NCBI RefSeq assembly: GCF_011045215.1
Contig: NZ_CP049201.1
Strand: one strand, 5' to 3'
From: Escherichia coli
GTDB taxonomy: Bacteria > Pseudomonadota > Gammaproteobacteria > Enterobacterales > Enterobacteriaceae
Length of the DNA: 64,000 nucleotides
Shown piece by piece: positions 22,091 to 60,726 of this stretch. How positions within the stretch are numbered: the first letter of the stretch is position 1; each line of letters starts with the position of its first letter. The notes beneath the pieces were generated by a model. It was not told the DNA's origin. It did not search any database and saw nothing but the letters and a program-made list of their open reading frames with translations. Position numbers and translations under genes: made by a program.

Positions 22091-22093
22091 TAT

Positions 22094-23580: not shown

Positions 23581-23721
23581 GTTGCTGGGGATTCGTTGGG
23601 CCTGGCCTATCCAGCAGTTATCCATTGGTTCGGCTCTTTGACGTTTCCGCTTCTGATTTGCGGTACATGATGTTCCCTCAATTTGCACCTGCTGTATCAG
23701 CGAGGTGAGAGATAACTACAA

Positions 23722-24528: not shown

Positions 24529-24973
24529 GCTGGTTATCGTTGCTTTCTTCGTTACTGTCATTGGTTCTTTCATCTGTTCAGTGAATCGTTACCACAATAA
24601 AGCCATTGAATACAAAATGCAGCGTGATGAGAATGCTATGGCATTAGATTCGGCTATGGCGACCATCTTTGATATGCAGAAGCGTCAACGTGACGTAGCA
24701 GAACTTGACGCCAGATACACAAAGGAGCTTGCTGATGCTAATGCGACTATCGAAAGTCTCCGTGCTGATGTTTCTTCTGGGCGTAAGCGCCTGCAAGTCG
24801 CCGCCACCTGTGCAAAATCAACGACCAGAGCCAGCGGCATGGGCGATGGAGAAAGCCCAGGACTTACAGCAGATGCTGAATTCAATTATTACCGTCTCCG
24901 AAGTGGAATCGACAGGATAACCGCACAGGTTAATTACCTACAGGAATACATCAGAACTCAATGCATGAATTAA
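24512..24973 (+). CDS. Spanin inner-membrane subunit Rz
   Basis: N-terminal TM segment, lambda Rz-like (QRDVAALDAKYTKELADA-type motif). Confidence 0.8.
   Translation: MKLSYKLVIVAFFVTVIGSFICSVNRYHNKAIEYKMQRDENAMALDSAMATIFDMQKRQRDVAELDARYTKELADANATIESLRADVSSGRKRLQVAATCAKSTTRASGMGDGESPGLTADAEFNYYRLRSGIDRITAQVNYLQEYIRTQCMN
24735..24920 (+). CDS. Spanin outer-membrane lipoprotein Rz1 (embedded in Rz, +1 frame)
   Basis: Lipobox-like LLGVSAC followed by proline-rich region. Confidence 0.55.
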   Translation: MLMRLSKVSVLMFLLGVSACKSPPPVQNQRPEPAAWAMEKAQDLQQMLNSIITVSEVESTG

Positions 24974-25582
24974 AAGAGGCAGATTGATCGTGTTTTCGAA
25001 GTGTTATACCACGCCCGTTCTGTTAATTTGGCAAAATCTGTTCTGATGCAATGAGTATCGAAAGATTTATTGGACTGGTTGCTTTGGTTATCACTGTTAT
25101 CGCTGGAGTTGTTGGCCTAGGGCGTATCCGTGGCACTAGTAAAAGAAGAGGTTAAAACTGCTCTGTTATACACTGAAGTTAACGCAGCGGCTAAGCACTC
25201 AGCAGCAGGACACCGTGTAGAGGCAACGGAAGAGGCCAGAAATATACAGCAGACTATTAACCATATTCCTGGTGACTCTGTTGAGCGCGGTATGCATAAG
25301 AAATACAAACGTACAATTTGAAGTGGTATATTTTTCTTGTTAGTAGATGAATATAATATACCACACAGAATACGATATAATTATTGCTCATGCTTACCTA
25401 AATATGAAAAACAATAAAGTTATAAGTAGACAAGTGTTTTGTTACTTTTAATAATTGATGTGATGTATATATTAAGATTGAAAAATTTAATCATTCTTTC
25501 CACATATAAATTAAGTGGTTCCCTTAGCTTGTCATTTTTGATGATAAGTGAGAGAATATGAACATTATATGATGGAGATAAT

Positions 25583-25894
25583 ATGTCAAACATAAAAATC
25601 AAACAAGCTATTGAAAAGATTGCGGAGTTCAGAGCAGCATCTGCTGCGATGGCTGATGCTCACATGGTTCTTATTACAGAGCTATTGAACTCAATTGAGG
25701 ATATCCGCAAAAACTCTGGTGATAATCTCTCTGAGTTTGAAAAAGGACAGGTTGCTCTCTACATAAAAATTAGCCCAGTTGTGAAAAATGGAATTTCGAG
25801 TATTGAAAAATATAATGAGTCTTTAAGTTCAGACTATGTTGAGGCTATGAACTCCTTATCTAAAATTGCGGGAGGGAATTCAAATGTCGATTGA
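25583..25894 (+). CDS. Hypothetical protein A of AT-rich cassette
   Basis: 103 aa ORF with GGAG RBS. Confidence 0.45.
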   Translation: MSNIKIKQAIEKIAEFRAASAAMADAHMVLITELLNSIEDIRKNSGDNLSEFEKGQVALYIKISPVVKNGISSIEKYNESLSSDYVEAMNSLSKIAGGNSNVD

Positions 25895-26270
25895 AGATGT
25901 TGGAAGCATCCTTGATAGATTAAAAGTAGCCAGGATCGAAAATAAAAAAATTGAAGAGTCAGCTGGAAAAGCAGAGGAAAATGCTGTTAACTCTAAGCAT
26001 ACTGATGGTAAAACACGAAGCGCCTTAACTATTACGTTTCTCTGGTTCTTTTTTTGCCTTCTTATTTTTAGCTGTCTTTTTGTTCTTTGGTATAATAATT
26101 CTGTTGTGAATTGGGCTTTAGAGTTAAAGAGCAAAGGTGTTGATGATTACGTTCAATATTTAAAGCCACTCGAGCTGGAAAAGGTATTGTCAATAATGAT
26201 TACTGCCCTTGGTACTTCATTAGGATTTATAATTGGGTATTATTTTAAGGATAAAGAAAATCATTCTTAA
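25884..26270 (+). CDS. Hypothetical membrane protein B of AT-rich cassette
   Basis: Hydrophobic segment ITFLWFFFCLLIFSCLFVLWY; start overlaps stop of A. Confidence 0.45.
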   Translation: MSIEDVGSILDRLKVARIENKKIEESAGKAEENAVNSKHTDGKTRSALTITFLWFFFCLLIFSCLFVLWYNNSVVNWALELKSKGVDDYVQYLKPLELEKVLSIMITALGTSLGFIIGYYFKDKENHS

Positions 26271-26315
26271 TATAGAGTTATCTCTAAAGATAACGAATTT
26301 TAATAGGAGGGTAGA

Positions 26316-26618
26316 ATGTCTGAACTGAATTATGAAGCAATAGGTCGCTGCAAAATCCTTAATGAAAAGATCAAAGATCTTCATGCTGAACGAATGAAAG
26401 CTATTGGTGATTTACGTACTGCTGTCTATGCCCTTCATCAGAAAGGGAATGTAAACCTCATCCCACCAGAAATTGTTGAATTCAACCCCCAATCGCTTAC
26501 ATCCCTTGTAGAGAAGGTTGGTCACTATGATGGTGAGCTGATGCGAGCTGTACATGAGTACAACAACTGGTGTGTAGAAGCAGGCGAGAAACCCGTAAAA
26601 CTTATAAAGCTAGACTGA
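26316..26618 (+). CDS. Hypothetical protein C of AT-rich cassette
   Basis: 100 aa ORF with AGGAGG RBS. Confidence 0.45.
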   Translation: MSELNYEAIGRCKILNEKIKDLHAERMKAIGDLRTAVYALHQKGNVNLIPPEIVEFNPQSLTSLVEKVGHYDGELMRAVHEYNNWCVEAGEKPVKLIKLD

Positions 26619-26643
26619 AACAACAAATTTATGCAAATCATTA

Positions 26644-26667
26644 GCCTCGCACATGCGGGGCTTTTTT
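26644..26667 (+). terminator. Rho-independent terminator after AT-rich cassette
   Basis: GCCTCGCA-ca-TGCGGGGC stem followed by TTTTTTAT. Confidence 0.5.
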
Positions 26668-26703
26668 ATGCGCACCACACATGCACATCAAAGAGAGTCT
26701 TCA

Positions 26704-27054
26704 ATGCCGCCACGAATCCCAAAAGCCTGCCGTGTTCGCGGTTGCCGCCATACCACGACTGACCCGTCAGGCTACTGCGAAAGCCACAAAAGCGAAGGCT
26801 GGAAGCAATACAAACCTAGACAATCCCGTCATCAGCGCGGCTACGGTTCGAAGTGGGACAGTATCCGCGCGCGTGTCCTGAAGCGTGACAAAGGCCTGTG
26901 TCAGTTATGTCTGCGTGCCGGTGTGGTGCGTGAGGCGAAAGCCGTTGACCACATCATCCCTAAAGCGCATGGCGGCACTGATGCCGACTGTAATCTGCAG
27001 AGTCTGTGCTGGCCGTGTCATAAGGCGAAGACGGCCCGTGAACGGCTGAAGTGA
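26704..27054 (+). CDS. HNH endonuclease (packaging-associated)
   Basis: HNH motif HIIPKAHGG...CNLQSLCWPCHKAK; start placed after terminator. Confidence 0.75.
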   Translation: MPPRIPKACRVRGCRHTTTDPSGYCESHKSEGWKQYKPRQSRHQRGYGSKWDSIRARVLKRDKGLCQLCLRAGVVREAKAVDHIIPKAHGGTDADCNLQSLCWPCHKAKTARERLK

Positions 27055-44108: not shown

Positions 44109-44642
44109 ATGCATCGTATAGACACGAAAACCGCGCAGAAGGATAAGTTCGGCGCGGGTAAGAACGGTTTTACCCGTGGTAACCCCCAGACCGGCACACC
44201 TGCCACCGATCTGGATGATGACTACTTTGACATGTTGCAGGAGGAGCTTTGCAGCGTGGTGGAGGCATCCGGTACCAGCCTGGAGAAGGGGAGGCATGAC
44301 CAGTTGCTTACCGCACTTCGCGCGCTGCTGTTAAGCCGCAAGAATCCGTTTGGCGATATCAAATCGGACGGCACGGTGAAAACGGCTCTCGAAAACCTTG
44401 GTTTGGGAGAAGCGGCAAAACGGGATGTGGGGACAGGGGAAAATCAGATACCGGACATGGCCTCTTTTGCCAGTGGTGATGGATGGATGAAATTACCCAA
44501 CGGGAAAATCCTGCAATATGGTCGTGGTGCGGTTACGCCGACATTATCGACGCAAACAATGAGAATTACATTCAGCATCCCTTTTCCTAAAAAGTGGACT
44601 GCGCCATGCTTACTCATTCTGGTGATGGTGGTGCGCCTTTAG
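44109..44642 (+). CDS. Tail fibre protein, constant N-terminal part
   Basis: Gly-rich N-terminus; ORF ends abruptly at start of putative invertible segment. Confidence 0.55.
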
Positions 44643-44835
44643 GTGCTGGGCGGGGATTCGTGATGACCGCAGAAGGCCCAACATTAACCTGTTTTTAATT
44701 CCGCTTACAGAACTGCATCAACCAGTTCCACAGTATCGATGAATTACAGTTGGTGGGCTGTTGGTGAGTAATTTTATTCAGGGTGATTTATATGAACGAA
44801 TATGTTTATAGCGCAAGGAATAATGCTTTTTCCCT

Positions 44836-45093
44836 GTGGATATGATTGATAAATATAAATCAGAGGGATGGGATTTATCAGATGCAAAGGAGGTGAATCA
44901 AAATATTATCAGTGAGTTTATGGCTGAACCGCCACAAGGAAAAATCCGTATTGCCGGAGATGATGGGATGCCTGCGTGGGCAGATATTCCTCCACCCACG
45001 CATGAAGAGCTTATTGAAATTACTGAATCAGAAAGACAGCTACTAATTAACCGGGCCAACGAATACATGAACAGTAAATCTGTGGCCCGGTAA
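44836..45093 (+). CDS. Tail fibre assembly protein
   Basis: 85 aa ORF with tail fibre assembly-like sequence. Confidence 0.45.
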   Translation: MDMIDKYKSEGWDLSDAKEVNQNIISEFMAEPPQGKIRIAGDDGMPAWADIPPPTHEELIEITESERQLLINRANEYMNSKSVAR

Positions 45094-45206
45094 AGCCGCT
45101 ATTGGTCGTCTGAAAGATGATGAACTGGCGCAATATAATTTGTGGCTGGATTATCTGGACGCACTGGAGCTGATCGATACTTCCGGTGCGCCAGATATTG
45201 AATGGC

Positions 45207-45449
45207 CTACGCCTCCGGCAGTTCAGGCCAGATGACATCCGGCGCGGTGCTGGTATCTGTTGCCGTCACCGCGTCAATGTAATCCAGCACAGCGTTAAGG
45301 CGGGTTGTTTCTGCCTGCGTCAGATTCCGTCCGGCCTGTAATTTCAGTTGAATCAGACTGATGGAGGCCATTGCAGTATGAATCAGCGACTGGCGCAGTG
45401 CTTCTGCTGCATCTACTGCTGCGCCGTGCTGTGCCTCGGTATCTGTCAC
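45207..45449 (-). CDS. Tail fibre assembly-like protein (alternative orientation)
   Basis: Small ORF on opposite strand within segment. Confidence 0.3.
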   Translation of the reverse strand: MTDTEAQHGAAVDAAEALRQSLIHTAMASISLIQLKLQAGRNLTQAETTRLNAVLDYIDAVTATDTSTAPDVIWPELPEA

Positions 45450-45927
45450 CCATTTCTCACCATTCCATTTATCGTATGGCGTTAACGGGGCGATAGTGGT
45501 TGTATTTTCAGGATAATCACCCGGAGCTGTGATTTTTTCGATTCTCCTGTTTCGGTGCTATAGACGATTTCACCACGATGATCTGGCACATATTCCCATG
45601 AATTTAAATCTACAGAGCGACAGATTGCATAACCAGCTTTATGTGTAATAAGCATCCAAACAAGAACATGCCGGGATACCGACGCCGACAGCGAGATATT
45701 CAGTTGATGTAGAAATATATTCACGCGTTTCACCATCATAATTATAAATGATAATGTCTCCCGCTTTTATGGCAATGAGTTCACTATTTAATACAGCTTT
45801 ATTCATCATGCAGCCCTCACAATATAATTAAAGGCGATGTTACGTGGACGATTTTCATTTGCTGTTGGAACAACATTTGCCGCCGAGAAGTGAACATCTT
45901 GTCGGATTTTTCGGTCATTAGCGTATG

Positions 45928-46341
45928 TCATAGACACATTGATGTTATTCCGGACTGAGGTACCTCCGTAAAAGCCCCACTCACACTTTGAACATCGACA
46001 ATTGCATTAATTTCGCTGTTTACGCGCAACTGACCAAAACCGCCAGTAATGTTTCGAATAGCATCTCCTTGCGATGAAAGCAGAGTTCGCCCACTATCCA
46101 CACCACGTTCATCATCCCATCCACGAATAAATTCACCGCGTAAATCAGGCAATTTATTTGTCGGGTAAGCCTTTGCCAGTTCCGGGTATTCTTCAGCAGA
46201 AAAAGCCGCACCATTGCATTTCAGCCAGCCTGTTGGCGGAGTGGCTGAAGGCCACGGAACAGGCACCCCAACCCCACATGCTGAGCCTTCTCCCAAACCA
46301 ACGTTTATGAAAATGCAGAAATAACGAGCAAATGGCATCAT
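45928..46341 (-). CDS. Alternative tail fibre C-terminal segment
   Basis: Gly-rich ORF on minus strand facing the fibre gene. Confidence 0.35.
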   Translation of the reverse strand: MMPFARYFCIFINVGLGEGSACGVGVPVPWPSATPPTGWLKCNGAAFSAEEYPELAKAYPTNKLPDLRGEFIRGWDDERGVDSGRTLLSSQGDAIRNITGGFGQLRVNSEINAIVDVQSVSGAFTEVPQSGITSMCL

Positions 46342-46367
46342 TCCTGCTTTTGTCAGGGAGATCTACC

Positions 46368-47850
<1,483 letters not shown>

Positions 47851-47930
47851 CTAACCCTTTGAATTTACATAGCGCAAAAAGATACCTTTCCTCATAATGT
47901 GAGCTAATTTTATGTTTCGTTTGATGATCG

Positions 47931-47993
47931 GGTCGGTCTCGAAAACCGGAGTAGGGGCAACTCTACCGGGGTTCAAATCCCCCTCTCTCGCCA
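47931..47993 (+). other. tRNA-Ser-like 3-prime fragment (degenerate)
   Basis: GGTCTCGAAAACCGGAGTAGGGGCAACTCTACCGGGGTTCAAATCCCCCTCTCTCGCCA resembles 3-prime two-thirds of a serine tRNA; 5-prime part missing. Confidence 0.4.
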
Positions 47994-48570
47994 CTTTATC
48001 AATGACTTATCTCCCGACTTCCCGTCTTGCTTTTCCTAAACAGAACAATCGTAGAATATTCTTGAAGGGTTAGATCGTCACTGTTTTCTGTTCGATACTG
48101 TGACATTCAGCACTTGATTCGCTATGGATCTGACAGGAAGGTTTTGAGCGAAAATCTGCAGTTATTCAGTCGTTTTCTTATCGGTCACCATTATTCTTTT
48201 AGACATTGATCCTACAAAGCTGCCGCAAAGTTGGTGGTGGGAACTGAAGTTGCGTAGAGAAGGGGTCAATACCCGGAGGCAAACATGGGCTGGCAAAAGT
48301 GTAGCGGTATTAGGCGCAGCTATTTAGCCTAGTTATGTTTTATGAAAACTTGATATCATATAAGTGTCTTACTTATTGGCTGTAAATAAGTTTTTCTAAG
48401 GAATTGTTTCTTGAGTATCATTTGTAACTGTAACGGAATTTATAATCCTTTGCTTTATTGTTACGGTATTTTTATCACACCCTATTTTTAGTGGTTTTTA
48501 TACTGAAGTTTGGCAAAGTGAACTTTATATACATATACTTCATCCTGTTTCAGTTAAATTGGGTGGATGA

Positions 48571-49315
48571 TATGGCAACTACATGTTCAGTTATATTGAT
48601 TTTGGAGTCCTTTGATGTTTATTTCGGAAAAGAGAGTGTGTTTCTGGAGAGAGGTTCATCTGTACTTGTCGACTCTAGCTCTAGAGATTTTTTCCTGACA
48701 TATCCTGAAAGAGTGATAGTGGCGGATTTTGGCGCTGAGTTTATTAGTCGCTATTTGAAAGCTAATAACTTAAGGGATATTTCTGATTGTAGGGAATATC
48801 CATCTTATTTAAAAATAAACTTTGCTGACTTCAGTTTAATTAAAGGATTAATTAGTTGGGCTAATCACTGTGCTGAATACATAGAAATTTTTGATGAGTC
48901 TATTGCTTTTACATGTCTCTCTGCATTTTCTTCTGAAAAACAATTTGGAGTATTTCTGTTTGGATGTTTGAAAAGCACAGGGGCTAAAGTTAAAACGATT
49001 ATTCATACGGATTTATCTGCACCATGGCGTCTTAAGGATATATCATCAAGATTATATCTCAGCGAAAGTTTACTAAAGAGGAAATTGAAAGAAGAGGGGG
49101 TATCATTCAGTAAGATCATACTTGATGAGAGGATGCAAATGGCTGAATATTTACTCAGCACTCGTTGTTATCCTATTAGTAAAGTAGCTAAGGTCTGTGG
49201 TTATGCCAGTGTCTCATACTTTACTTATGTATTTAGACGTTATTTTGGTGTTTCTCCAAGTCAATACTCTCAGAGGAGTTCAGAAAGTAAAATTCTTACT
49301 CACCAGGGAATCTGA
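48571..49315 (+). CDS. AraC/XylS-family transcriptional regulator (Rns/AggR/AppY-like)
   Basis: C-terminal dual-HTH pattern WRLKDISSRLYLSESLLKRKLK...ILDERM...YFGVSP; AT-rich; start uncertain. Confidence 0.65.
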
Positions 49316-49356
49316 TCATTGTTCTTGCCCCCTTATTTCCAGACAGGGGGTGTATC

Positions 49357-49722
49357 TTAAGTTAACGTTACCCGCTGACGTCGATATTCTCGCGGAGAGC
49401 GATAACCCAACGCACTGTGCGGATGGTTTTCATTGTAATGTTCGATCGCCACTGCAAGATTATGCAATGCCGTTCTTACATTCGGTTTCGGCATGAACGC
49501 GATGTAGTCTTCCTTCATCGTTTTCACGAACCTTTCTGCAATTCCATTACTCTGAGGACTGCTGATTGCCGTTGTGCAGGGCTCCAGATTCAACTCTCTG
49601 GCGAACTGCCGTGTTTCATGCGCTCTATACGCTGAACCGTTATCTGTCAGCCACTGGATGGACTGTTCCGGTACTTTATCGCCAAAGCGTTTTTCTATCG
49701 CTCCTAACATGACATCCTGCAC
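49357..49722 (-). pseudogene. IS3-family transposase, C-terminal fragment (IS2-like)
   Basis: rve integrase-core motif WLTDNGS...[16 protein letters not shown]; only the last ~120 aa present. Confidence 0.6.
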
Positions 49723-50069
49723 TGTCGCTTTATCGTAACCTCCCGTGCTTGCGGCCCAGTCTATGGCTTCACGATCGCAACAGTCCAGGGCGATTCATCT
49801 GGGCCAATCCTCGCTCATAACAGGCATTCACTTCAGTCATGGCAGAAAGGTATGCATGCTGGAGAAGTCGTGAAAGAAAAGAAGACTGCTGCGCCGTTTG
49901 TCGTCACGTTTATCTTCATTGGCTATGCAAGTCGTAATACAAGGTGGGACAAAACTGAGACACATAAGGCCTCGCAATGGCTTGCAAGGCTTTACATGTT
50001 TTGATGTGGTGGGACGTGTGAGCGCAGTGTTGATGGGGTAATGCTTTGAATTAGAAGCGGATTCTTATA

Positions 50070-50118
50070 ATTCGTAATGCGAAGGTCGTAGGTTCGACTC
50101 CTATTATCGGCACCATTT
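50070..50118. repeat. attR of prophage / attL of downstream element: second copy of 49-bp tRNA-Thr 3-prime segment
   Basis: Exact repeat of 10074-10122. Confidence 0.75.
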
Positions 50119-50280
50119 CAACGTCTTTTCCCGTCTATTAAAATCCAAAAAACCCGCATATACTCTAGCTTTGAGCGCCCCCGATAGTGTTTTAACGTCT
50201 ATCAATATCTCCTAAAATCCACGTCTTTTGGGGGTATATTCGGGGGTATATGCTGTGTGGGCTACTGGAGATACCCCCAA

Positions 50281-51471
50281 ATGAAACTAAATGCCCGTCA
50301 GGTCGATACGGCCAAACCGAAAGAAAAACCCTATAAACTGGCCGATGGTGGTGGGCTTTATCTGCTTGTTAATCCCAATGGTTCCCGGTACTGGCGTTTA
50401 AAGTACCGGGTAGCCGGAAAAGAAAAGCTGTTGGCGCTGGGGGTATATCCCGATGTAACCCTGGCTGATGCCAGGGCGAAACGAGATGAGGCCAAAAGGG
50501 GTATGGCTGGGGGGATCGACCCGAACGAAGCGAAGCGGGAAGAAAAATTGAACCGCGAAGCGCAAATCAAAAACACCTTCGAAGAAATCGCCAGAGAGTG
50601 GCATACAGAACGGCAGAAGAAATGGTCTGAGGGGTACGCCTCGGACATTCTGGAAGCATTCAGTAAAGACATATTCCCTTGGATTGGAAAACGCCCCATC
50701 ACGGAAATAAAGCCCCTTGATTTGCTGAATACGCTTAAACGCATCGAGAATAGGGGAGCGACTGAAAAGGCCCGTAAGGTTCGCCAGTGGTGCGGGGAGG
50801 TCTGGAAGTATGCGATCGTTACCGCCCGCGCAGAATATAACCCCGCCCCTGATCTATCTGTGGCTATGGAAGGACACGAAGGGGAGCACTTCCCCCATCT
50901 GGAAGCCGAAGAGTTACCCGAATTTTTCCAGACGCTGGCGACGGCAAAAAGTAACGTTCAGGTTATTTTGGGGCTGCGTCTGCTTATTCTTGTGGGGTTA
51001 CGTCCGGTTGAATTACGCGCGGCCCCGTGGTCAGAGATTGATTTTGATAATGCCTTGTGGGAGATCCCCAAAGAGCGAATGAAGAAAAGACGTCCGCACG
51101 TTGTCCCGCTTTCTCGCCAGGCTATGGTTATTCTCGGGCAATTAAAAGAGTTGTCGGGCCGCAATCCTTTCATTTTTCCGGGCCGGAACGACCCGCGAAA
51201 GCCAATGAGTGAAGGAGCAATTAATCAGCTAATAAAGCGACTCGGGTATAAGGGCAAAGCTTGCGGGCATGGTTTCCGACATACCATGAGCACAATTTTG
51301 TATGAGAAAGGGTATAACACCGAATGGATCGAAACCCAGCTTGCACATGTTGATAAAAATACCATCCGTGGCACATATAATCATGCCCGCTATCTGGATG
51401 GACGCCGGGAAATGCTTCAATGGTATGCCGACTATATGGAATCGCTGGCGAGTGGCAGGGTAAAAGATTAG
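50281..51471 (+). CDS. P4-type integrase (tyrosine recombinase)
   Basis: N-terminal MKLNARQVDTAKPKEKPYKLADGGGLYL typical of P4-family integrases; catalytic HGFRHT... Confidence 0.85.
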   Translation: MKLNARQVDTAKPKEKPYKLADGGGLYLLVNPNGSRYWRLKYRVAGKEKLLALGVYPDVTLADARAKRDEAKRGMAGGIDPNEAKREEKLNREAQIKNTFEEIAREWHTERQKKWSEGYASDILEAFSKDIFPWIGKRPITEIKPLDLLNTLKRIENRGATEKARKVRQWCGEVWKYAIVTARAEYNPAPDLSVAMEGHEGEHFPHLEAEELPEFFQTLATAKSNVQVILGLRLLILVGLRPVELRAAPWSEIDFDNALWEIPKERMKKRRPHVVPLSRQAMVILGQLKELSGRNPFIFPGRNDPRKPMSEGAINQLIKRLGYKGKACGHGFRHTMSTILYEKGYNTEWIETQLAHVDKNTIRGTYNHARYLDGRREMLQWYADYMESLASGRVKD

Positions 51472-52020
51472 AGAAGGTCTAAGACGGGAATACCGCTAAA
51501 TTAGATGTTAGGCGTGGACACTCAGCATCCACGCTTAAACTTTTTATTATCATTTTCAATGAATTATGATTTTGGAAATTTTATAAAAAACACCAAGATT
51601 ACTAATCTATTGATTAATATGAAATATTTCTTTTTTTGATTATTAATTGTGCTCTTGATTGTTGTTTTTATGGTGTTAATTTATAAAAATCTTATTTATA
51701 GGAATTAACATTATATAGTTGGCACTTTTTGCTAAAATCTGTTTTTATTGTGTTTTATTTTTATTTCATTTTTGTTGTTGTTTGTTTGATTTTTAGTGTC
51801 TTTATATCTGGCTAATTGATTTCACTCAAACCATAAATCCTTTCAGAGGCTTCTAGAGTCTTCCTGAGGCTTAAATTGACTTAACTAAAAGTCAAGCCCC
51901 ACATCCCACATACATCTTTTTGACATGCACTTATGGCGTGAATAACAATGACTTCATCCAATCTACAGGCATCCTATAAAGTCAATGTCTGTATATAGAA
52001 AGATATTACATAACGTTTGA

Positions 52021-52260
52021 ATGTTAATAGCGGGTGTGAATATGAGAAATGATGCAATGCAGCTTTTAAACCAGGGAAAAAGATTGATCCGCCTGCCTGA
52101 AGTTATGATGCTTACGGGGCGGTGTCGCGCCAGTATTTATAAAGATATCAATGCAAATGTCTTTCCAAAGCCGATTAAAACCGGCCCGCGTTCTGTCGCA
52201 TGGGTTGAGGGTGAGATCAGCGACTGGATCGACAACAAAATCAAAGAGCGCAAAGTGTAA
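52021..52260 (+). CDS. AlpA-family transcriptional regulator
   Basis: RLIRLPEVMMLTGRCRASIYKDI...FPKPIK.GPRSVAWVEGEISDWI; start may be 52057. Confidence 0.7.
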   Translation: MLIAGVNMRNDAMQLLNQGKRLIRLPEVMMLTGRCRASIYKDINANVFPKPIKTGPRSVAWVEGEISDWIDNKIKERKV

Positions 52261-52459
52261 ATCTGATTTTATTCAGAGATGAATATGATTTATTTGAATG
52301 CTAAGGATTTTGTGTATTCTTTTTGTTGTAAATACTCGTAGCATGGGGAGTTGGCAGTATTTATTCAGTATTAGGTTAAGTAGTGATAAAATACCAGGTA
52401 ATGCCGGTTTATGCAGTGTTTAATATATTTGTTGCTGGCGAAAATTTACGGAAAATTAA

Positions 52460-53332
52460 ATGAACATTACTGATATTATCAGCCATCGCGTATATCGTGA
52501 TGCGGATCTTGCTGTCATTAATAACACGGCATTTATTCAGCCTTATGACGGTTGTCACCGTGGGTTGTATGAAATGCGCGTTATTGAACTTTATCGCCTG
52601 AATAAAATGATGCACCTTACCCACGAATATAAATCTATTTCCGGGGAAAGCGTAGGCATTCCGGCGACTAAAGAGGAACTGTTTACACTGGTTAATAAAG
52701 GGCATGAACTTTGCCAGTCTGAACGGGAAAAGCTGGCGGCACTTGAAGCAGAATTGCAGCGTCTGCCAAGCCCGGCTGTAATTCCTGCGCCGCAGACGAT
52801 TAAAGAAGCACAGCAGGCCCGTAAATCACTAGAAGATGAAAGATACAGACTGCATCACGCAGCAATTAAAAATCAAGTCAAAGCACAGCAGGAAGAGTTA
52901 TCCATCAGACAAAACATTCTGGAATTGCTCGCGCCGGTTATTGATGTGTTGTTGGCCGTGGAAGATGTGGAACTGCTCGATCTGCGCCGTTCCCTGCCTA
53001 AGTCATCCCTCGATGCTAAGGCATTCAAAAAGGCGATTTCTGAAATTGAGTGTGCTGACCTTGCCTGGCAGAAAATGGATAAACTGGAGATTGCCCTTAA
53101 CAAGGTGGTGAACAACTGCACATATCGCCCGGAAGGAAGCATTAATCCCCGTTTTGTTAACCCTCTTAATGAAGATAAGCGGGAACGCGCCGAAATATCA
53201 CGCGATTATTACAGCTCTGAAATGGCCTTTATTCATACGGTGATGAGTGCAGATGAATATTTAAATTATATGTTGCCGATCCGTCACCAGCAGCGCGCGC
53301 AACGACTCACATTAGAAAGAAATATCAACTAA
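52460..53332 (+). CDS. Coiled-coil protein (possible scaffold or capsid-size factor)
   Basis: 290 aa with long predicted helical/coiled-coil central region; immediately upstream of capsid-like gene. Confidence 0.4.
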   Translation: MNITDIISHRVYRDADLAVINNTAFIQPYDGCHRGLYEMRVIELYRLNKMMHLTHEYKSISGESVGIPATKEELFTLVNKGHELCQSEREKLAALEAELQRLPSPAVIPAPQTIKEAQQARKSLEDERYRLHHAAIKNQVKAQQEELSIRQNILELLAPVIDVLLAVEDVELLDLRRSLPKSSLDAKAFKKAISEIECADLAWQKMDKLEIALNKVVNNCTYRPEGSINPRFVNPLNEDKRERAEISRDYYSSEMAFIHTVMSADEYLNYMLPIRHQQRAQRLTLERNIN

Positions 53333-53341
53333 GGAAGAATT

Positions 53342-54349
53342 ATGTCTTATGTAACACCAGATTATTTAACGCAGTATCACGAAAACCTGATTAAGTCTTT
53401 TAATATTAAATATAAAAACGAAGATACGGGGTATTTCACCATATCACAGCCGGAAAAAGCATCTCCGGATGCATGGGGATGTTCCACGCTTGATGTTAAA
53501 GGCTCGTCCTGGCTGATTGATAATATTTCATTACTGGACATTATCGGTGCGGATGGCACGACGATCACCATCGGTGATGGTTCCCTTTATACAGGCCGTG
53601 CAAAGGAAGGTCGCTTTCATAAGAAACTAAAAACCAACGGAACACCTTTTTTATTATCAGAAACGGATTCCTGCGCCTCATTGACTTATGAAGAAATGGC
53701 GGTAATGGCAAACGCGAAAAATTTCAGTAATGAAATGATCATTTTTTTCAAGAAGGCCGTGGTGCGGGATATGCTCCGTATTGGATTTAACGGCAAGATG
53801 ATTGCCGAAAATACCAACCCGGAACAATATAAAAACGGCGAAGATATCAATATTGGCTGGCACTCGCTGGCAAAAACATTCAATAACGGTTCACAAATTA
53901 TTTCTGATGCTTTCGCACTGGGGAAAGGCGGTGATTTTGCCGATGTTCACGATCTGGCTGATTGCCTCATCACGTCAAAAATCCCCGAAGGTCAGCGCGA
54001 AGATCCGGGCCTTGTGGTGATGGTTGGCGCGCAACTTGCCGCCCGCGAACGACTGAAACTGTTCAACATGGCCGATCAACCACTGACGCTGACGGCGGGG
54101 GATATGCTGACAAGCAGTGTCGCCGGTCGCTTTGCTTTTATCCCGCCGTTTATGCCGGGTAAGCGCCTGGCTGTTACGACGCTGAAAAATTTGCAGATCC
54201 TGACGCTGAAACACAGCCAACGCTACCGCGCGGAGGATATCCCGCAACGAGGTGTTTATGAGCATGGCTATTTACGTGAGGAAGGTTACGCGCTGGGGGA
54301 TGGCTATCTTTACGCGGCCAGCGATGAGAACGCCGTAACGCTGGTTTAA
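53342..54349 (+). CDS. P2 gpN-family major capsid-like protein
   Basis: Motifs GFNG, GKGGDFA and EDPGLVVMVGAQLAA resemble recalled P2 gpN; needs search confirmation. Confidence 0.5.
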   Translation: MSYVTPDYLTQYHENLIKSFNIKYKNEDTGYFTISQPEKASPDAWGCSTLDVKGSSWLIDNISLLDIIGADGTTITIGDGSLYTGRAKEGRFHKKLKTNGTPFLLSETDSCASLTYEEMAVMANAKNFSNEMIIFFKKAVVRDMLRIGFNGKMIAENTNPEQYKNGEDINIGWHSLAKTFNNGSQIISDAFALGKGGDFADVHDLADCLITSKIPEGQREDPGLVVMVGAQLAARERLKLFNMADQPLTLTAGDMLTSSVAGRFAFIPPFMPGKRLAVTTLKNLQILTLKHSQRYRAEDIPQRGVYEHGYLREEGYALGDGYLYAASDENAVTLV

Positions 54350-54561
54350 GTATCGAGTACAGCCAGCTTTGACAGTGATGGCCAGATAAAAGAAAACCCT
54401 CTCACCGGAACGAACAAGAAACGATAAGAGGGTTTATCAGGAAGATGATTCTACGTGATGAATTATACCGAGAAACAACCGATGCTTACCAGCAAAAACG
54501 CGTCACTGTTTGTGCAGCTGGCACCGTCCGATCTGACGGTGTTTTCCGGAATGGTAAGGAG

Positions 54562-54753
54562 CTATTCCTTTGCCTTTTTGCGCTGTTCTGCTTTCAGCTT
54601 GCGCCCGCAGGCATCCAGCACCCAAGCGGAAAAACTTGAACCCGGATTATCGACTTTTTCGCGTTCTACGCAGGCATCAATTTCTGCGATCATTTCATGC
54701 GGGAAGCGTATTCCCTTGTATGTTGTTTTGCTGTTTATGTGGTTTTTAGTCAT
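54562..54753 (-). CDS. Putative ribbon-helix-helix repressor
   Basis: 64 aa; start placed at MTKNH; divergent from operator array. Confidence 0.45.
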   Translation of the reverse strand: MTKNHINSKTTYKGIRFPHEMIAEIDACVEREKVDNPGSSFSAWVLDACGRKLKAEQRKKAKE

Positions 54754-54769
54754 GCTGGAAACTCTTAAG

Positions 54770-54870
54770 TGTTTAAACATCAGTAAAGATACAGTAAAGC
54801 CGGACATAACAAAACTGTTTAAACAAAATCTGTTGACTTGTTTAAACACTCAGCATAATGTGTTTAAACA
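54770..54870. promoter_or_regulatory. Operator array: four copies of palindrome TGTTTAAACA overlapping a rightward promoter
   Basis: Copies at 54770, 54816, 54839, 54861; TTGACT at 54834. Confidence 0.55.
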
Positions 54871-54960
54871 GTTTGCTACGTTGCAAACTGAAAAAACGAA
54901 GCCCGGCAGTGTTGACGCACTAACCGGGCCTCTGACCAACACGTTATTAGGAGTAACGCT

Positions 54961-55164
54961 ATGGCTAGCCATCAGTGTAACCAAACTCGCCCTAAAAATC
55001 GCCTATTTCTCTTTCTCGCGGTATCACGGGCCGACATGCAGGACAAACCACACCGCGAACAAATCACCGCGTACAGCGAACAGGAAGCCCGTTCCATGCT
55101 GGCCGGTCGCTTTATCCTCTGCTTTGCTGGCCGTCTGCCGGTTCAGGAGGTGCACCATGTTTAA
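54961..55164 (+). CDS. Hypothetical small protein
   Basis: 67 aa ORF with AGGAG RBS. Confidence 0.4.
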   Translation: MASHQCNQTRPKNRLFLFLAVSRADMQDKPHREQITAYSEQEARSMLAGRFILCFAGRLPVQEVHHV

Positions 55165-55405
55165 CCCACTGGACAACCGCAAAGCGGCGGCGCTTAACCC
55201 GTTCCACGATGACTGTTACGATCCGCCAGCCTTTATTAAACCGGGTTCAAAAGTAGTGGTTGAAATTGATTCCCGGGAAATGGAGGTCGCTATTCTAGCC
55301 GCTTATGACTACGGACTGGACGCGCTGAACGACGATGGCCGGGAAGAGCTTAACCGCTTAATTGCTGACCTGAAAGACAAGATAACGGAGGCGCGGTATG
55401 CATAA
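55157..55405 (+). CDS. Hypothetical small protein
   Basis: 82 aa with CAGGAGG RBS; C-terminal part of a longer ORF-track entry. Confidence 0.4.
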   Translation: MFNPLDNRKAAALNPFHDDCYDPPAFIKPGSKVVVEIDSREMEVAILAAYDYGLDALNDDGREELNRLIADLKDKITEARYA

Positions 55406-55823
55406 TCTGCTTAATTCACCGTTGCCAGTGTCTATGGATCTCTTTCAGGCTGGCGAGATGTGCGGGCATTTTGTCGCGCGGTTAACGGATGAAAGTTGTG
55501 TTGACGAGACTGAACGCGTCGCACTTTGCGGACGTCTGGCTTTTGCCCTGCGTTCTCTTTCATCTCTTTGTGATACAGACTATCCATCGCATATCCAGGC
55601 GCAATTAACCGCGACTGCTATTCCTGCTCCCTGCGTACCTGATGAGTGGATCGACGCGACGATCATGACGGGCTATTGCACCGCCTTAAATGATGCGCTG
55701 CTTAGTCGCTCCCTTCGTATGGACGTTGAAACACAATTACGCTGGCTTTTGCATGACATGATTAATTTACTTGTCAGATATCTGAAACAGCCTTGTATTA
55801 AGGCGGGAGTAGATCATGTCTGA
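55398..55823 (+). CDS. Hypothetical protein
   Basis: 141 aa ORF in operon string. Confidence 0.4.
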   Translation: MHNLLNSPLPVSMDLFQAGEMCGHFVARLTDESCVDETERVALCGRLAFALRSLSSLCDTDYPSHIQAQLTATAIPAPCVPDEWIDATIMTGYCTALNDALLSRSLRMDVETQLRWLLHDMINLLVRYLKQPCIKAGVDHV

Positions 55824-56214
55824 AATTATGCTCACACCGTTTCACGTTGACCGCCATTTTTACGATCTGGTTTACGGTGCTTCATTTTTTGCGGATGCAT
55901 TACCTGCAATGAATGATATCAAGCAGCAGCGGCTTTATTGTCGATTATTGCAATTAAATCTGGTTGTTTTATTTGAAAAACGGTCGCGGGATATTCCCCC
56001 AATTCAGTCGAGTAAAATAAAAATCGCTGATGAGGTTATATTTCTTAATGTCGATAATATTTATCATGCGCTTTCCCTGACTGCCGGGCTGATAAGTCAG
56101 GATATCAGTAAGGGGATGGAAAAAGAACTGGCTGAATATATCAGGGATATTATTAGTATTATTTTTAATGAAATGCGAATGCAGATGGTTGATTATGATC
56201 CATATGAAATGTGA
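55816..56214 (+). CDS. Hypothetical protein
   Basis: 132 aa ORF in operon string. Confidence 0.4.
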   Translation: MSEIMLTPFHVDRHFYDLVYGASFFADALPAMNDIKQQRLYCRLLQLNLVVLFEKRSRDIPPIQSSKIKIADEVIFLNVDNIYHALSLTAGLISQDISKGMEKELAEYIRDIISIIFNEMRMQMVDYDPYEM

Positions 56215-56310
56215 GACGAATAAAACAATAATCGATTTATAAGAACTGAAAAATATTTAATTATAACCGTATTTTAACGGGGGATAATTACGCCCCTGTA
56301 AGGAAAATAT

Positions 56311-56580
56311 ATGTCTGATTTGAATACCATTGCTGTTAATAGTGCTGAAAAATATCTTAGCCTTGAGTGCTTCCATAAACTCAACCGCGCAAGGAATGTT
56401 TCATTCCAGATGCATTTACAGATCCGTCAGTGTGAGATAAACGGCCTGCCACTTTTATGGATTCCAGATATTTTCAGCTATATCAGCGAAGACATATCCG
56501 CCGTTCTGGAAGAAGCCAAAGTACTTGGCCTTTGCGATAAGTTCACAGGCGAAGCCCGGATCGGTCAGGTCAGTCTTTAA
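56311..56580 (+). CDS. Hypothetical protein
   Basis: 89 aa ORF upstream of primase. Confidence 0.35.
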   Translation: MSDLNTIAVNSAEKYLSLECFHKLNRARNVSFQMHLQIRQCEINGLPLLWIPDIFSYISEDISAVLEEAKVLGLCDKFTGEARIGQVSL

Positions 56581-56613
56581 TTTTTTGTATTCCGCGCCGC
56601 CCGCTGCGGCGCA

Positions 56614-59376
56614 TTGTCTTACCCATTAATAAAGGTCATACCGATGCAAGGTAAAAAAGTTTCACAGACAGCAGGACGCGCGGCGGGCCAGTGGGAAAAT
56701 ATTCTTGAACACCTGGGGATTACTGTTCCTGCGGGTGGTCTTCATGGCCCCTGCCCGATCTGCGGCGGTAAAGATCGTTTTCGCTTTGATAATAAAAAAG
56801 GGCGTGGAACCTGGTTCTGCAACCAGTGCGGCCACGGTGACGGGCTGGATCTGGTCAAACTGGCGCTTTCGCTGGACACCGGGCCAGCCGCTGATCGAGT
56901 TGCTGAATTACTTCCGGCCCTTCCTCCGCCTGCGGTCATGCAGCCTGCCAGAAAAGAAGCCAGTGACGAAGGTCGCCCACATGACTACTGGCAACGCCTC
57001 TTTGCCCGTACTCAGCCGGGGGAAAGCCCTTACCTTACGGCGCGGGGGCTGACAGGTTTTGAACTGCCGCTGACCGTTCAGGAGATGAAAACCGCTGGCG
57101 GTGTTTTTCCGGCTGGTTCGCTTTTATTACCGATCACGGACACCGAAGGACGGATGACCGGTGCACAGCTTATCGGCCCGGACAAGGTAAAAGGCTTATG
57201 TGCTGGCACCAGGAAAAAAGGGCGTTTTATCTCTGTCGGGCCGTTCCCGGAGAAAATGCCCGCGCGGATCATTATCTCGGAAGGCTTTGCCACTGCGTTA
57301 AGCGCATCCCTGCTTTCAGAGGGCTGGAGTATTGCGGCGCTGGATAAAGGCAACCTGAAAGACGTTGCGGAGCAAATCCGCCAGAAATGGCCGGACGTGC
57401 AGATCGTTATTGCCGGTGATAATGACTTTTCTGACGGTAAACCCAATCAGGGGAAAGAGTCTGCGATCAAAGCTGCACTGGCCGTTAAGGGATGGATGAC
57501 CATTCCTCCCGGACGGATCAAAGTTGACTGGGATGATTACCGCCGTGAATTTGGCCTCCAGCGCGCCCGTGACGCATTCGCGGAAGAACTGCTTAACCCG
57601 GCAGACACCGAAACGCGTTTACCGCATGGTTTCCGCCTGACGAAGGATTATCTTTGGTTTGATCGCCCGCTCAGTGACGGTAGCGAAAGCGGCCAGACTC
57701 GCCAGGTGAAGATATGTAGCCCGCTCAAAGTGACGGCCATCACCAGCGACGGCGAAGGCGGTAAATTCGGGCGTCTGCTTGAGTGGGAAGACTCCAGCGG
57801 ATTACGGCATGAATGGGCGATGCCAATGACAGTGCTTGCCGGAAGCGGTCAGGAGCTGCGGGAGGTTCTGCTTGATAACGGAATGCACTTTATCAGCGTG
57901 AACGGCGCGGCGCGTAGCTATCTGATGGAATACATTTCTAACTGTCGCCCGGTTCGCCGCGTCACCTGCGTTGAAAAAACAGGCTGGTTTAGCGGTGCGT
58001 ATGTTCTCCAGGATGAGGTGATCGGCAGCGATGCCGGATCGGTCATCCTCCAGTCTGCTATGTCGTCTAAAAATGACTTCCGGGTGAGCGGAACGGTGGC
58101 GGAATGGGCGCAACACGTCGGGCGCTATTGTGCCGGAAATTCCCGCCTGGTGTTCTGCGTCAGTCTGGCGCTGGCCGCGCCGTTACTGAATATTATTGGT
58201 GTTGGCGGCGGCGGTTATCACCTTAAGGGCGAATCCACGGACGGCAAGACAACCACAATGAAGGTAGCGGCGTCTGTCTGCGGCGGGCCTGATTTCTGGA
58301 AAACGTGGCGGGCAACCGGAAACGCGCTGGAAGGTATTGCGCTACGCCGTAATGATGCCGCCCTGATGCTGGATGAAATCAGCGAAGTTGACGGCAGAGA
58401 GGCTAGCCGGATCGCCTATATGCTGGGGAACGGGCAGGGCAAAGCAAGGGGGCGCGTTGATGGCAGCGTCCGCGATCCGGTGACCTGGACATTGCTTTAC
58501 CTGTCCACCGGGGAAATCTCTATTGCGGAACATGCCGCCGAAGCCGGAGAAAAGCGAACCGGCGCGGGTGTCGGTGTGCGTATGGTGCAAATCCCCAGCG
58601 ATACCGGAAAACATGGCGCTTTCGAAAATCTCCACGGCATGGAAGGCGGTAAAGCGTTTGCGGAATACCTTGAACAGACCTGTAAACAATATTACGGCGC
58701 GCCGTTCCGCGAATGGTTGCGCTGGCTGGCGGCAAATCTGACGGAAACCGCGAACCGGGCGCGGGCAATGAAAAAAGAGTATGAACGGACATTATTACCC
58801 GAAGATTCCGGCAAGCAGGTTGGGCGCATTGTGGATCGCTTTGCACTGTTGGCCGTTGCGGGGGAACTGGCGAGTGAAGCGGGGATCACAGGCTGGCAAC
58901 CAGGAGAAGCGTATAACGCTGCAAGAAGCTGTCTGGCGGCATGGCTTAACGATCGTGGACATGCGGCCAACCAGGAAGAAGCCGACGCGCTGGAGAAGGT
59001 GCGGCGCTTTATTACGGCCAATCAGTACACACGCTTTGCTGACTGGTATGACGAGAAAAACCGCCCGTCAAATATGGTTGGCTTTCGCCGGGTGGAGAAA
59101 GGCGGGAACGGTATTGGCATGAGCAAAAAGGAGAACAGCGGCGATACTGTTAAAGACGGGGACGCCACTAAAGAGCCGGAAACCACATTTTATATCCTGC
59201 CCAGCGGATGGAAGGAAATTTGCGGGACGTCGGACAGCGTTAAAACGGCGAGACTATGCGACGAGGCTGGATGGCTTGTAAAGGATGAAGATCGCCAGCG
59301 CCTACAACGTACAGTAAGACTACCGGAAATTGGCTTAAAGAAAGTGTATGTGTTCAGCGGCGAAGTGATCGGATAA
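56614..59376 (+). CDS. P4 alpha-like primase-helicase
   Basis: Zinc-binding CPICGG...CNQCGHGDG, TOPRIM-like IISEGFATA...AGDND, P-loop GESTDGKTT. Confidence 0.8.
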   Translation: MSYPLIKVIPMQGKKVSQTAGRAAGQWENILEHLGITVPAGGLHGPCPICGGKDRFRFDNKKGRGTWFCNQCGHGDGLDLVKLALSLDTGPAADRVAELLPALPPPAVMQPARKEASDEGRPHDYWQRLFARTQPGESPYLTARGLTGFELPLTVQEMKTAGGVFPAGSLLLPITDTEGRMTGAQLIGPDKVKGLCAGTRKKGRFISVGPFPEKMPARIIISEGFATALSASLLSEGWSIAALDKGNLKDVAEQIRQKWPDVQIVIAGDNDFSDGKPNQGKESAIKAALAVKGWMTIPPGRIKVDWDDYRREFGLQRARDAFAEELLNPADTETRLPHGFRLTKDYLWFDRPLSDGSESGQTRQVKICSPLKVTAITSDGEGGKFGRLLEWEDSSGLRHEWAMPMTVLAGSGQELREVLLDNGMHFISVNGAARSYLMEYISNCRPVRRVTCVEKTGWFSGAYVLQDEVIGSDAGSVILQSAMSSKNDFRVSGTVAEWAQHVGRYCAGNSRLVFCVSLALAAPLLNIIGVGGGGYHLKGESTDGKTTTMKVAASVCGGPDFWKTWRATGNALEGIALRRNDAALMLDEISEVDGREASRIAYMLGNGQGKARGRVDGSVRDPVTWTLLYLSTGEISIAEHAAEAGEKRTGAGVGVRMVQIPSDTGKHGAFENLHGMEGGKAFAEYLEQTCKQYYGAPFREWLRWLAANLTETANRARAMKKEYERTLLPEDSGKQVGRIVDRFALLAVAGELASEAGITGWQPGEAYNAARSCLAAWLNDRGHAANQEEADALEKVRRFITANQYTRFADWYDEKNRPSNMVGFRRVEKGGNGIGMSKKENSGDTVKDGDATKEPETTFYILPSGWKEICGTSDSVKTARLCDEAGWLVKDEDRQRLQRTVRLPEIGLKKVYVFSGEVIG

Positions 59377-59469
59377 GACCTGCTGACACCGCTATAACTA
59401 ACGGTGTTGGCCAGCTTCCGGCCCTGGAAACATAGCCAGCCAGGAAGAAGTGATCGCACGTATCATATT

Positions 59470-59690
59470 TTTTAGTGGAAACAGTGGGAACATAGGGAAC
59501 AGACTTGATTTATAAAGGTTTTATTTGTTCCCAATTACTGTTCCCATATGGTAACAGGTGGTAATGTATTTTAAATCATATGGTTATGTTGATATGCAAA
59601 GCGTTGTTCCCAGTTGTAAAAGAGAGATGGGAACAGGAAAAAGGTATAAATATCAACACTGTTACCATTGTTCCCACTGTTTCCACCATT
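59470..59690. repeat. Iteron cluster (TGTTCCCA / TGGGAACA), crr/ori-like
   Basis: At least 9 copies in both orientations directly downstream of primase. Confidence 0.6.
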
Positions 59691-59724
59691 TTTGACAATA
59701 ACAATATTTAATTTCGGGGAAAAT

Positions 59725-59741
59725 GCTTTTCCCTGGCTGGC
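59725..59741. repeat. 17-bp direct repeat GCTTTTCCCTGGCTGGC (copy 1)
   Basis: Perfect match to 62005-62021. Confidence 0.6.
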
Positions 59742-59760
59742 TAACATCAAAGGTAAAGAA

Positions 59761-60726
59761 ATGAGCATTAAGAAACGTCCTGATGGAAAATGGCTGGTAG
59801 ATATGCGGCCCGCAGGTCGTAAAGGAAAACGTATTCGCAGGGTTTTTAACAGGAAATCGGAGGCCCTGGCATTTGAGATGTATTACCTGGTCCGTTCTCA
59901 ATCGCCGGAATGGGCAACGAACTTCACAGACCGCAGATTATTAAGCGATTTGCGTAAAACATGGTGGGACCTGTTTGGACACGCCAGAAATAACGCAGAA
60001 ACTGAAAAGCGCCAGCTTGATAAAACCATCCGGCAGATGGGAGATCCACCAGTTAACCGGCTTACAATCCGCTTCATTCTGGAATTCAGAGCAGGCCGTG
60101 TTTCAGGGAAATTAAAGGCATCCACGATAAATCGCGATATGTACCGGTTATCAGGCATGTTTACCGAATTAATTAAAGCAGGTGAGTGTAAAAATAATCC
60201 GTTCCGTAGTCTTGAACCGTTAAAGGAAGAACCTTCCGCAGTAACGTTTCTGACCCACGAAGAAATTAGCATGTTACTGGAAAAACTGGAGGGAGATTCG
60301 CGTAAGCTGGCGTTACTGTGTCTTAATACTGGGGCGCGTTTCAGTGAAGCCGCGAATCTAACGGCTGAAATGGTTAACAACCGTCGTGTAACGTTTATTA
60401 AGACAAAGAACGGGAAGCAGCGGACAATACCCATTTCATCTGAACTCGAAAAGGAAATAAAAACAAAAAATTCAGGTCAACTTTTCACGGTGGATTATAA
60501 ATGGTTTTCCCGCAGGTTGAAGGCAATCAAACCGGATTTACCGGATGGACAGGCAACGCATGTATTACGACATACTTTCGCCAGTCATTTCATTATGAAT
60601 GGGGGAAATATTGTTGTATTAAAAGAGATTCTTGGACATGCCAATATTCAGCAAACTATGATTTATGCACACTTTGCGCCTGAATTTCTGGCGCAGGCTG
60701 TAACATTGAATCCATTTAGTAAGTAA
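59761..60726 (+). CDS. Tyrosine integrase (second integrase of the region)
   Basis: N-terminal MSIKKRPDGKWLVD arm-binding-like region; C-terminal HVLRHTFASH... Confidence 0.8.
   Translation: MSIKKRPDGKWLVDMRPAGRKGKRIRRVFNRKSEALAFEMYYLVRSQSPEWATNFTDRRLLSDLRKTWWDLFGHARNNAETEKRQLDKTIRQMGDPPVNRLTIRFILEFRAGRVSGKLKASTINRDMYRLSGMFTELIKAGECKNNPFRSLEPLKEEPSAVTFLTHEEISMLLEKLEGDSRKLALLCLNTGARFSEAANLTAEMVNNRRVTFIKTKNGKQRTIPISSELEKEIKTKNSGQLFTVDYKWFSRRLKAIKPDLPDGQATHVLRHTFASHFIMNGGNIVVLKEILGHANIQQTMIYAHFAPEFLAQAVTLNPFSK

Follow-up and report, generated by a model that had tools for sequence, protein, structure and literature searches.

We describe here an AT-rich islet close to the right end of a prophage in a 64,000-nt stretch of Escherichia coli DNA (contig NZ_CP049201.1 of assembly GCF_011045215.1; hereafter the window), in which a gene for an AraC/XylS-family transcriptional regulator is found. 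Judged by its sequence, this gene is patE in intact form, known from E. coli O157:H7 as a phage-carried AraC-type regulator that has already been characterised, and the islet is very probably a lysogenic-conversion ("moron") module whose product is a phage-borne activator of the YdeO/GadW/GadX/AppY acid-stress group. The patE module, as the term is used below, consists of an apparent fossil attachment (att) site derived from the tRNA gene serU, an AT-rich leader, patE itself and the stub of an IS2-like insertion sequence (IS).

To place the gene, the window was compared with the proA-thrW island of E. coli O157:H7. Positions 46286-50122 (3.8 kb) are 99.6% identical in nucleotide sequence to this island, which holds one AraC-type gene only, encoding WP_000246059.1. 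The window gene agrees with that gene in 744 of 744 nt and its product in 247 of 247 amino acids, so the gene disruption that the original prediction had named as a way to be wrong is not there. All 16 differences between the two sequences are in the 3.1 kb of flanking sequence compared, and none is within patE. Seven of the 16 are 1-2-bp indels, several of them in homopolymers, which could be either real decay or assembly error. The patE locus of strain EDL933 (z0321, on OI-8/CP-933H) has the same left neighbours (pin, a GIY-YIG gene and the serU fossil), the same IS2-like stub and the same attR. It differs from the window in the tandem element beyond attR and in a few indels upstream, and the O157:H7 carrier is a ~10-kb IS-riddled remnant without late genes, whereas the carrier in the window is an apparently complete SfV-like prophage of ~40 kb.

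The function of PatE has been described in the literature. [quoted passage not shown] In published arrays, Z0321, listed as "putative regulator (prophage CP-933H), O-island 8", was highly expressed in EDL933 and 6-fold RpoS-dependent (PMC2907692). PatE and PsrB are furthermore cited beside AppY as prophage AraC regulators of the acid-resistance system AR2 (PMC10057817), and PatE is not mentioned in PMC8565820. The proposal in the original prediction that such a regulator could reprogram host gene expression as lysogenic conversion therefore has a counterpart in the identical O157:H7 protein, with its activation of gadE, gadBC and hdeAB and its repression of LEE genes (PMC10877973).

Following this literature on the identical protein, transcription of patE from the resident prophage would take place in stationary phase and depend on RpoS, and its AT-rich promoter is probably silenced by H-NS until stationary phase or stress. 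PatE would then act on the cis-element of the hdeA promoter, raising the expression of gadE, gadBC and hdeAB, and through PatE acid resistance would go up and LEE gene expression down. The same circuit may be expected in this host, because the targets of PatE are core E. coli loci, and the gad and hde loci are conserved. The IS2-like stub and the serU fossil would be inert debris of assembly with no present function.

A different reading of the same islet is that patE is intact cargo permanently silenced by H-NS, which has no role in this strain and persists as a selectively neutral prophage end. The region is indeed very AT-rich, IS and att debris lie on its flanks, the neighbouring GIY-YIG gene is frameshifted, and three indels relative to O157 lie upstream of patE. 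However, the coding sequence does not differ from the O157 copy at any nucleotide while its flanks show 16 differences, the protein is 99.6-100% identical across three att sites and three viable phages, and the identical gene is both highly expressed in an RpoS-dependent manner in EDL933 (PMC2907692) and associated with a mutant phenotype (PMC10877973). We therefore regard permanent silence as improbable and keep to the reading of patE as an active conversion gene.

The composition of the islet was then analysed. The 1044-bp unit at 48272-49315 has a G+C content of 34.7% (33.3% in 48272-48571 and 35.2% in the patE gene, 48572-49315), compared with 50.7% for the remainder of the prophage and 49.6% for the window as a whole, and falls in the lowest 2.5% of equal-size windows; the AT-rich stretch and the AraC/XylS regulator read from the letters in the original prediction were thus both recovered. 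The mechanically called open reading frame (ORF) runs from 48458 to 49315. We place the true start at the ATG at 48572, which gives a protein of 247 aa with the N-terminus MATTCSVILI, because RefSeq annotates the identical O157 gene there and because this N-terminus aligns with those of YdeO, GadW and AppY. A Shine-Dalgarno sequence (GGTGGA) lies 6-11 nt 5' of the ATG. The putative hairpin terminator after patE (GCCCCC...GGGGG, 49328-49352) was ruled out, as it is the terminal repeat region of the IS2-like element.

PatE has a beta-rich N-terminal part (residues 1 to ~135) and a C-terminal DNA-binding domain with a double helix-turn-helix (HTH) motif (residues ~136-238). [quoted passage not shown] It also matches over its full length phrog_1450 (1e-95), a phage protein family of unknown function. 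Among the curated NCBIfam profiles the best was YdeO (NF007407, 148.1 bits, full length, 1-235 against 1-233 of 253), while the GadX profile (NF007432, 110.5 bits) was matched by the C-terminal half only. Membership in either equivalog was rejected, since both scores are below the curated cutoffs (348 and 500, respectively). Further comparison with K-12 proteins showed that PatE shares 35%, 33% and 28% identity over the full length with YdeO, GadW and AppY, respectively, 35% with GadX over 161 C-terminal residues (BLASTP), and 39% with EnvY over 127 C-terminal residues. On these sequence comparisons, the neighbourhood of PatE is the acid-stress group YdeO/GadW/GadX/AppY, and PatE is an equivalog of none of them.

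YdeO, GadW and GadX have the same two-domain architecture as PatE, share with it the N-terminal motif M..(V/I/T)CSV(I/V), and according to the literature have the same regulon (gadE, hdeAB; PMC10877973). PatE differs from them in being phage-borne, while YdeO, GadX and GadW are encoded at the chromosomal ydeO or gadXW loci. AppY, on the cryptic prophage DLP12 of K-12, offers another parallel: it is AraC-type too, its gene lies just 3' of tail-fibre assembly genes near the prophage end, and it is likewise tied to acid resistance and RpoS (PMC10057817). It differs from PatE in its orthologous group, in its prophage and att site, and in a broader published regulon.

The nearest solved structure by sequence is the GadX DNA-binding domain (3e-24). 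CsvR, Rns and ToxT come next (1e-16 to 1e-13, over the linker and the DNA-binding domain), AraC and MarA are far behind, and no sequence alignment was obtained between the N-terminal domains of PatE and of the Rns/ToxT-type regulators. An AlphaFold model of PatE was built from 16 homologues, with a mean predicted local distance difference test score (pLDDT) of 82 and a predicted template-modelling score (pTM) of 0.70. The model shows a beta-rich N-terminal domain followed by a seven-helix AraC domain, whose helices all fall in residues 136-238. Its best full-length matches were Rns, CsvR and ToxT (Foldseek E 8e-12 to 8e-9, ~250 columns), at a template-modelling (TM) score of ~0.5, which in a predicted model would reflect another orientation of the domains or a divergent N-terminal domain. 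The GadX DNA-binding domain was superimposed on the model with a TM score of 0.9, 43-44% identity and a root-mean-square deviation of 1.2-1.6 A. The predicted structure thus matches the two-domain fold of the Rns/ToxT type, with an N-terminal cupin-like beta-sandwich and an AraC DNA-binding domain. Rns and CsvR of enterotoxigenic E. coli and ToxT of V. cholerae nevertheless differ from PatE, having 18-22% identity to it and pilus and toxin operons as their targets. The assignment to the horizontally acquired Rns/AggR/AppY kind of regulator was right in kind, with YdeO/GadW/GadX/AppY the closest by sequence and Rns/CsvR/ToxT the best full-length fold, and the housekeeping AraC subfamily considered beforehand as a refuting outcome has no place here, as the nearest relatives include no housekeeping sugar regulator.

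The window is E. coli chromosome: of 5426 complete E. coli genomes, 5379 contain a match to its proBA genes (7474-9929), the best one at 99.2% identity. Downstream of proBA, thrW, a tRNA-Thr (CGT) gene, was located at 10044-10119 by ARAGORN. The 3' end of thrW (46 nt plus TTT, 10074-10122) is exactly duplicated at 50070-50118 and nowhere else in the window, where no such repeat is expected by chance. From this exact repeat and the adjoining integrase gene it follows that 10123-50118 is a prophage of ~40 kb. The int region shares 97-99.5% identity with SfV, SfIV and SfII, and the integrase together with the early region (10120 to ~27100) shares 97% identity with these Shigella serotype-converting phages. 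The late region codes for a tail sheath and Mu-like baseplate genes. At the right end, 49945-50121 corresponds to the SfV-type attP arm, with 96% identity to the SfV segment 20467-20643, located between gtrA and int. From its gene content, this SfV-like thrW prophage appears complete.

In SfV, the genes gtrA, gtrB and gtrV lie between the tail-fibre assembly gene and attP. The same slot in the window is filled by an invertible tail-fibre segment with pin, the GIY-YIG gene and the patE module. The gtrABV cassette and the patE module thus share the slot (tail-fibre assembly gene to attP/int), the phage lineage and a role in lysogenic conversion, and differ in that one serves O-antigen glucosylation and the other encodes a transcription factor, with unrelated gene content. 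Lying in a non-essential slot, with a foreign composition and a presence/absence distribution among related phages, the patE module has the features of moron cargo. The pin-type invertase gene, 3' of the invertible tail-fibre/tfa segment, is the last phage-function gene ahead of the cargo. The invertible tail-fibre C-terminus/tfa segment together with the invertase gene spans 44109-46922. Its tfa genes are opposed, like those of the O157 island, and this prophage seems to have kept host-range switching of the Mu/P1/e14 type. The GIY-YIG gene is intact in O157:H7 (257 aa) and frameshifted in the window (+CT at 47387-47388 and -T at 47018), and the two ORF halves match positions 1-120 and 122-244 of phrog_5356.

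The patE module is also found in other phages. It lies 3' of the tail-fibre assembly gene in a lambdoid prophage at argW/intS, in a further lambdoid prophage at att-lambda beside bio, where IS1 has been inserted upstream, and, between tfa and attP-int-xis and with 98.6-99.1% identity, in three phages whose sequences are available, mEp332, ev099 (Radostvirus) and PhiR70_1. At least 80% of the window region 47900-49330 is held by 536 of the 5426 complete E. coli genomes (~10%). More distant homologues (84%, 55% and 53% amino acid identity) stand alone between the antiterminator gene Q and the holin gene in lambdoid prophages. This is the second of the classical moron slots, the one in which Shiga toxin (Stx) phages carry stx. 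In the 84% homologue (locus L016), the cassette is 84.5% identical at the nucleotide level and the homology corresponds to 48420-49309 of the window, beginning 152 bp upstream of the start codon and reaching as far as the stop codon. The 53%-identical homologues of 243 aa were suspected to be PsrA/PsrB, and this could not be established; they have the Q-to-holin location and carry no such name.

With these carriers in hand, it can be asked whether PatE serves the phage itself, controlling tail-fibre inversion, superinfection exclusion or induction and no host genes. Its position near pin and the invertible tail-fibre segment, and that of its homologues directly after the late antiterminator Q, would agree with such a role. 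But patE is carried by unrelated virion backbones, both the SfV-like myovirus and lambda-like siphoviruses, it is also found in O157 on the 10-kb CP-933H remnant, where late genes are missing, and the published PatE targets are host genes (PMC10877973). A purely phage-directed PatE is therefore barely credible.

On its right side, patE is followed by the remnant of an IS2-like element. The ORF at 49357-49722 (-) matches positions 172-289 of 301 of the NCBIfam IS2 TnpB profile (E=1e-54), scoring 186 bits against a cutoff of 597, and the IS3 family (E=2e-25). In blastn, the inverted segment 49325-49793 aligned to nt 857-1326 of the 1331 nt of IS2A with 70% identity, the terminal repeat included. 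About the right-hand third of the element is left, its 5' ~856 bp having been lost. In the O157 annotation the remnant is called "integrase core domain, missing N-terminus". By sequence it is a 3' (C-terminal) remnant and no functional member of the IS3/IS2 group. Its outer end lies 5-10 bp past the patE stop codon and its other end ~275 bp before the attR repeat, and patE is ~750 bp inside attR. The truncated IS3-family transposase C-terminus "just inside attR" was therefore read correctly in the original prediction, and can now be called IS2-like.

The IS2-like stub invites the explanation that PatE is an orphaned local regulator, whose adjacent target operon was deleted by this element and whose effect on gad and hde is cross-talk through a GadX/YdeO-like domain. 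Rns, CfaD and AggR sit beside the pilus operons that they activate, the fold of PatE is Rns/CsvR/ToxT-like, and its DNA-binding domain has the identity to that of GadX given above. An IS end abutting the stop codon, in an IS that is itself truncated, is moreover a sign of deletions. What speaks against a lost partner is that the 84%, 55% and 53% homologous cassettes are solitary between Q and holin, without a partner operon, that the best full-length profile is YdeO and no pilus regulator, and that no adhesin or pilus genes lie beside the module in the eight copies examined, which include the window, O157 L001, L002, L003, mEp332, ev099 and PhiR70_1. Likewise, no pilus or toxin operon was found beside patE in the window, O157, argW or att-lambda prophage loci. 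We consider this explanation very unlikely.

The three alternatives are thus disfavoured because the coding sequence is perfectly conserved amid changes in its flanks, because the cassettes are solitary in other slots, and because the carrier phages are diverse. Several points nevertheless weigh against the reading of patE as an active lysogenic-conversion gene. A promoter scan gave a sigma-70-like promoter at 48510-48539 (TTGGCA-18 nt-TATACT), but the count of promoter-like sites in the patE region was not above that in shuffled sequence. Even the 84.5%-identical cassette has kept the promoter block nearly unchanged, which supports a self-contained cassette of promoter and patE, conservation being the one argument that backs the predicted promoter. 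Relative to O157, three 1-nt deletions lie upstream of patE (48395, 48468 and 48546), and these could change its expression or be assembly errors. The equation of WP_000246059.1 with z0321 is based on its being the sole AraC-type gene in the thrW island and on published statements. We take CP-933H/OI-8 to be the thrW island, and a literature search found nothing tying CP-933H to thrW. Finally, the mechanism by which PatE represses the LEE is called unclear in the review (PMC10877973).

The left part of the patE module was traced to the serU locus. Positions 47934-47993 correspond to the 3' 60 nt of the tRNA-Ser (CGA) gene serU (native nt 29-90, with two 1-nt deletions), and 47994-48271, directly upstream of the AT-rich leader and patE, to 278 bp of the chromosomal serU-yodB intergenic region. 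Among the matches listed, the identity between fossil and native serU locus is 95-98%, with the native locus identified from the K-12 annotation; in this search, 5404 of the 5426 genomes hold some match to the whole query. The idea that 47900-47993 might be a functional tRNA was rejected, as ARAGORN found none, Rfam gave 27 bits against a gathering threshold of 47, and serU lacks its 5' half here. On its left side the homology begins at the anticodon stem, the same point at which several Klebsiella and Citrobacter phages start matching, and these matches presumably begin at their serU attP cores. The phage sequence that abuts the left edge of the fossil differs between carriers. Since phage DNA, a serU core and the bacterial right flank follow each other in this order, the arrangement has the signature of an attR.

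The fossil is also present in the viable phages mEp332, ev099 and PhiR70_1. The presence of a serU attR within phages that integrate elsewhere would be explained most simply by imprecise excision of an ancestral serU prophage. Beyond this, the chances seem to us evenly balanced that a serU phage was excised imprecisely in the manner of lambda-bio, and that the cargo block was then recombined among at least three integrase/att modules (thrW, argW and att-lambda), two virion types (SfV-like myovirus and lambda-like siphovirus) and viable phages. Specialised transducing phages of the lambda-bio type have the same order of tail end, att core, bacterial right flank and novel joint. In the present case, by contrast, there is a 278-bp relic only, the carriers use other int/att modules, and the excision is an event that we infer. 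If this capture took place, naive E. coli would even now be able to acquire the reprogramming of acid resistance through lysogeny. The features of the islet and its surroundings are listed in Table 1.

Table 1 Features of the patE islet and the carrier prophage, with homologue loci from other prophages (coordinates of the latter refer to the respective locus)
Feature	Position	Strand	Basis or remark
attL core: last 46 nt of thrW + TTT	10074-10122	+	Exact repeat of 50070-50118
SfV-type integrase gene	10134-11297	-	Adjoins thrW/attL; PHROG integrase matches
pin-type DNA invertase	46368-46922	+	PHROG 125 DNA invertase, E=1e-96; pinE in O157 annotation
LEM-3-like GIY-YIG gene	46980-47754	-	O157 annotation WP_000355475.1
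Putative fossil attR of serU-integrating phage	47934-48271	+	Alignment with native serU locus
AT-rich patE upstream region	48272-48571	+	33% G+C; 48420 onward within conserved patE cassette
patE, intact AraC/XylS-family regulator, 247 aa	48572-49315	+	Pfam HTH, O157 identity, structure matches
IS2-like (IS3-family) right-end remnant	49325-49793	-	Transposase C-terminal ~145 codons (49357-49791) + terminal inverted repeat
151-bp spacer, IS remnant to att arm	49794-49944	.	Alignment with O157 island
SfV-type attP arm (49945-50069) + attR core (50070-50118)	49945-50118	+	Prophage right end; exact thrW repeat
P4-type integrase	50257-51471	+	NF007246 integrase domain, E=3e-91; starts second element
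Q-to-holin homologue, L016	5841-6738		84% identity
Q-to-holin homologue, L010-L012	7001-7732		53% identity
Q-to-holin homologue, L017	6001-6735		55% identity

The patE gene, its family, its prophage location and its role in lysogenic conversion are all published and already known. What is added here is modest: a carrier of the SfV type that appears complete, viable lambdoid carriers, a prevalence of ~10%, the occupation of either of two moron slots, and the attR fossil from serU. According to the published work, PatE ties prophage carriage to survival in stomach acid and to damped type III secretion in enterohaemorrhagic E. coli. The presence of patE would mark a strain with phage-tuned acid resistance, and the module illustrates on a small scale how morons are put together and passed from phage to phage.

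Between the IS2-like remnant and the att arm, the 151-bp spacer was, among the loci compared, common only to the O157 thrW island, and it had no match to SfV, IS2 or the other patE carriers compared. Immediately beyond attR the window and O157 sequences part. At this point, outside the patE module, the regenerated 3' end of thrW has received a second element in tandem, and no third thrW repeat that would close it was found within the window. This element (50257-60726) includes an AlpA-like ORF (52021-52260), an ORF at 53342-54349 resembling the P2-family major capsid protein (157 bits, below the cutoff), a gene for a helicase-like protein of 920 aa (56614-59376) and a second tyrosine recombinase gene (59668-60726). 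It may be a phage satellite that carries a capsid gene of its own.

Other AT-rich regions were also observed. The most AT-rich stretch of the window, with a G+C content down to 31%, is 21551-23745 within the prophage. It contains the ORF 22094-23425 (-), whose 443-aa product belongs to PHROG family 8614 (unknown function) and weakly matches a QatA-like ATPase (35 bits); the ORF may be an anti-phage defence cargo gene. Two further AT-rich islets, at 24801-26745 in the prophage and at 51051-52745 after the P4-type integrase gene, have a G+C content below 38% in 1-kb windows.

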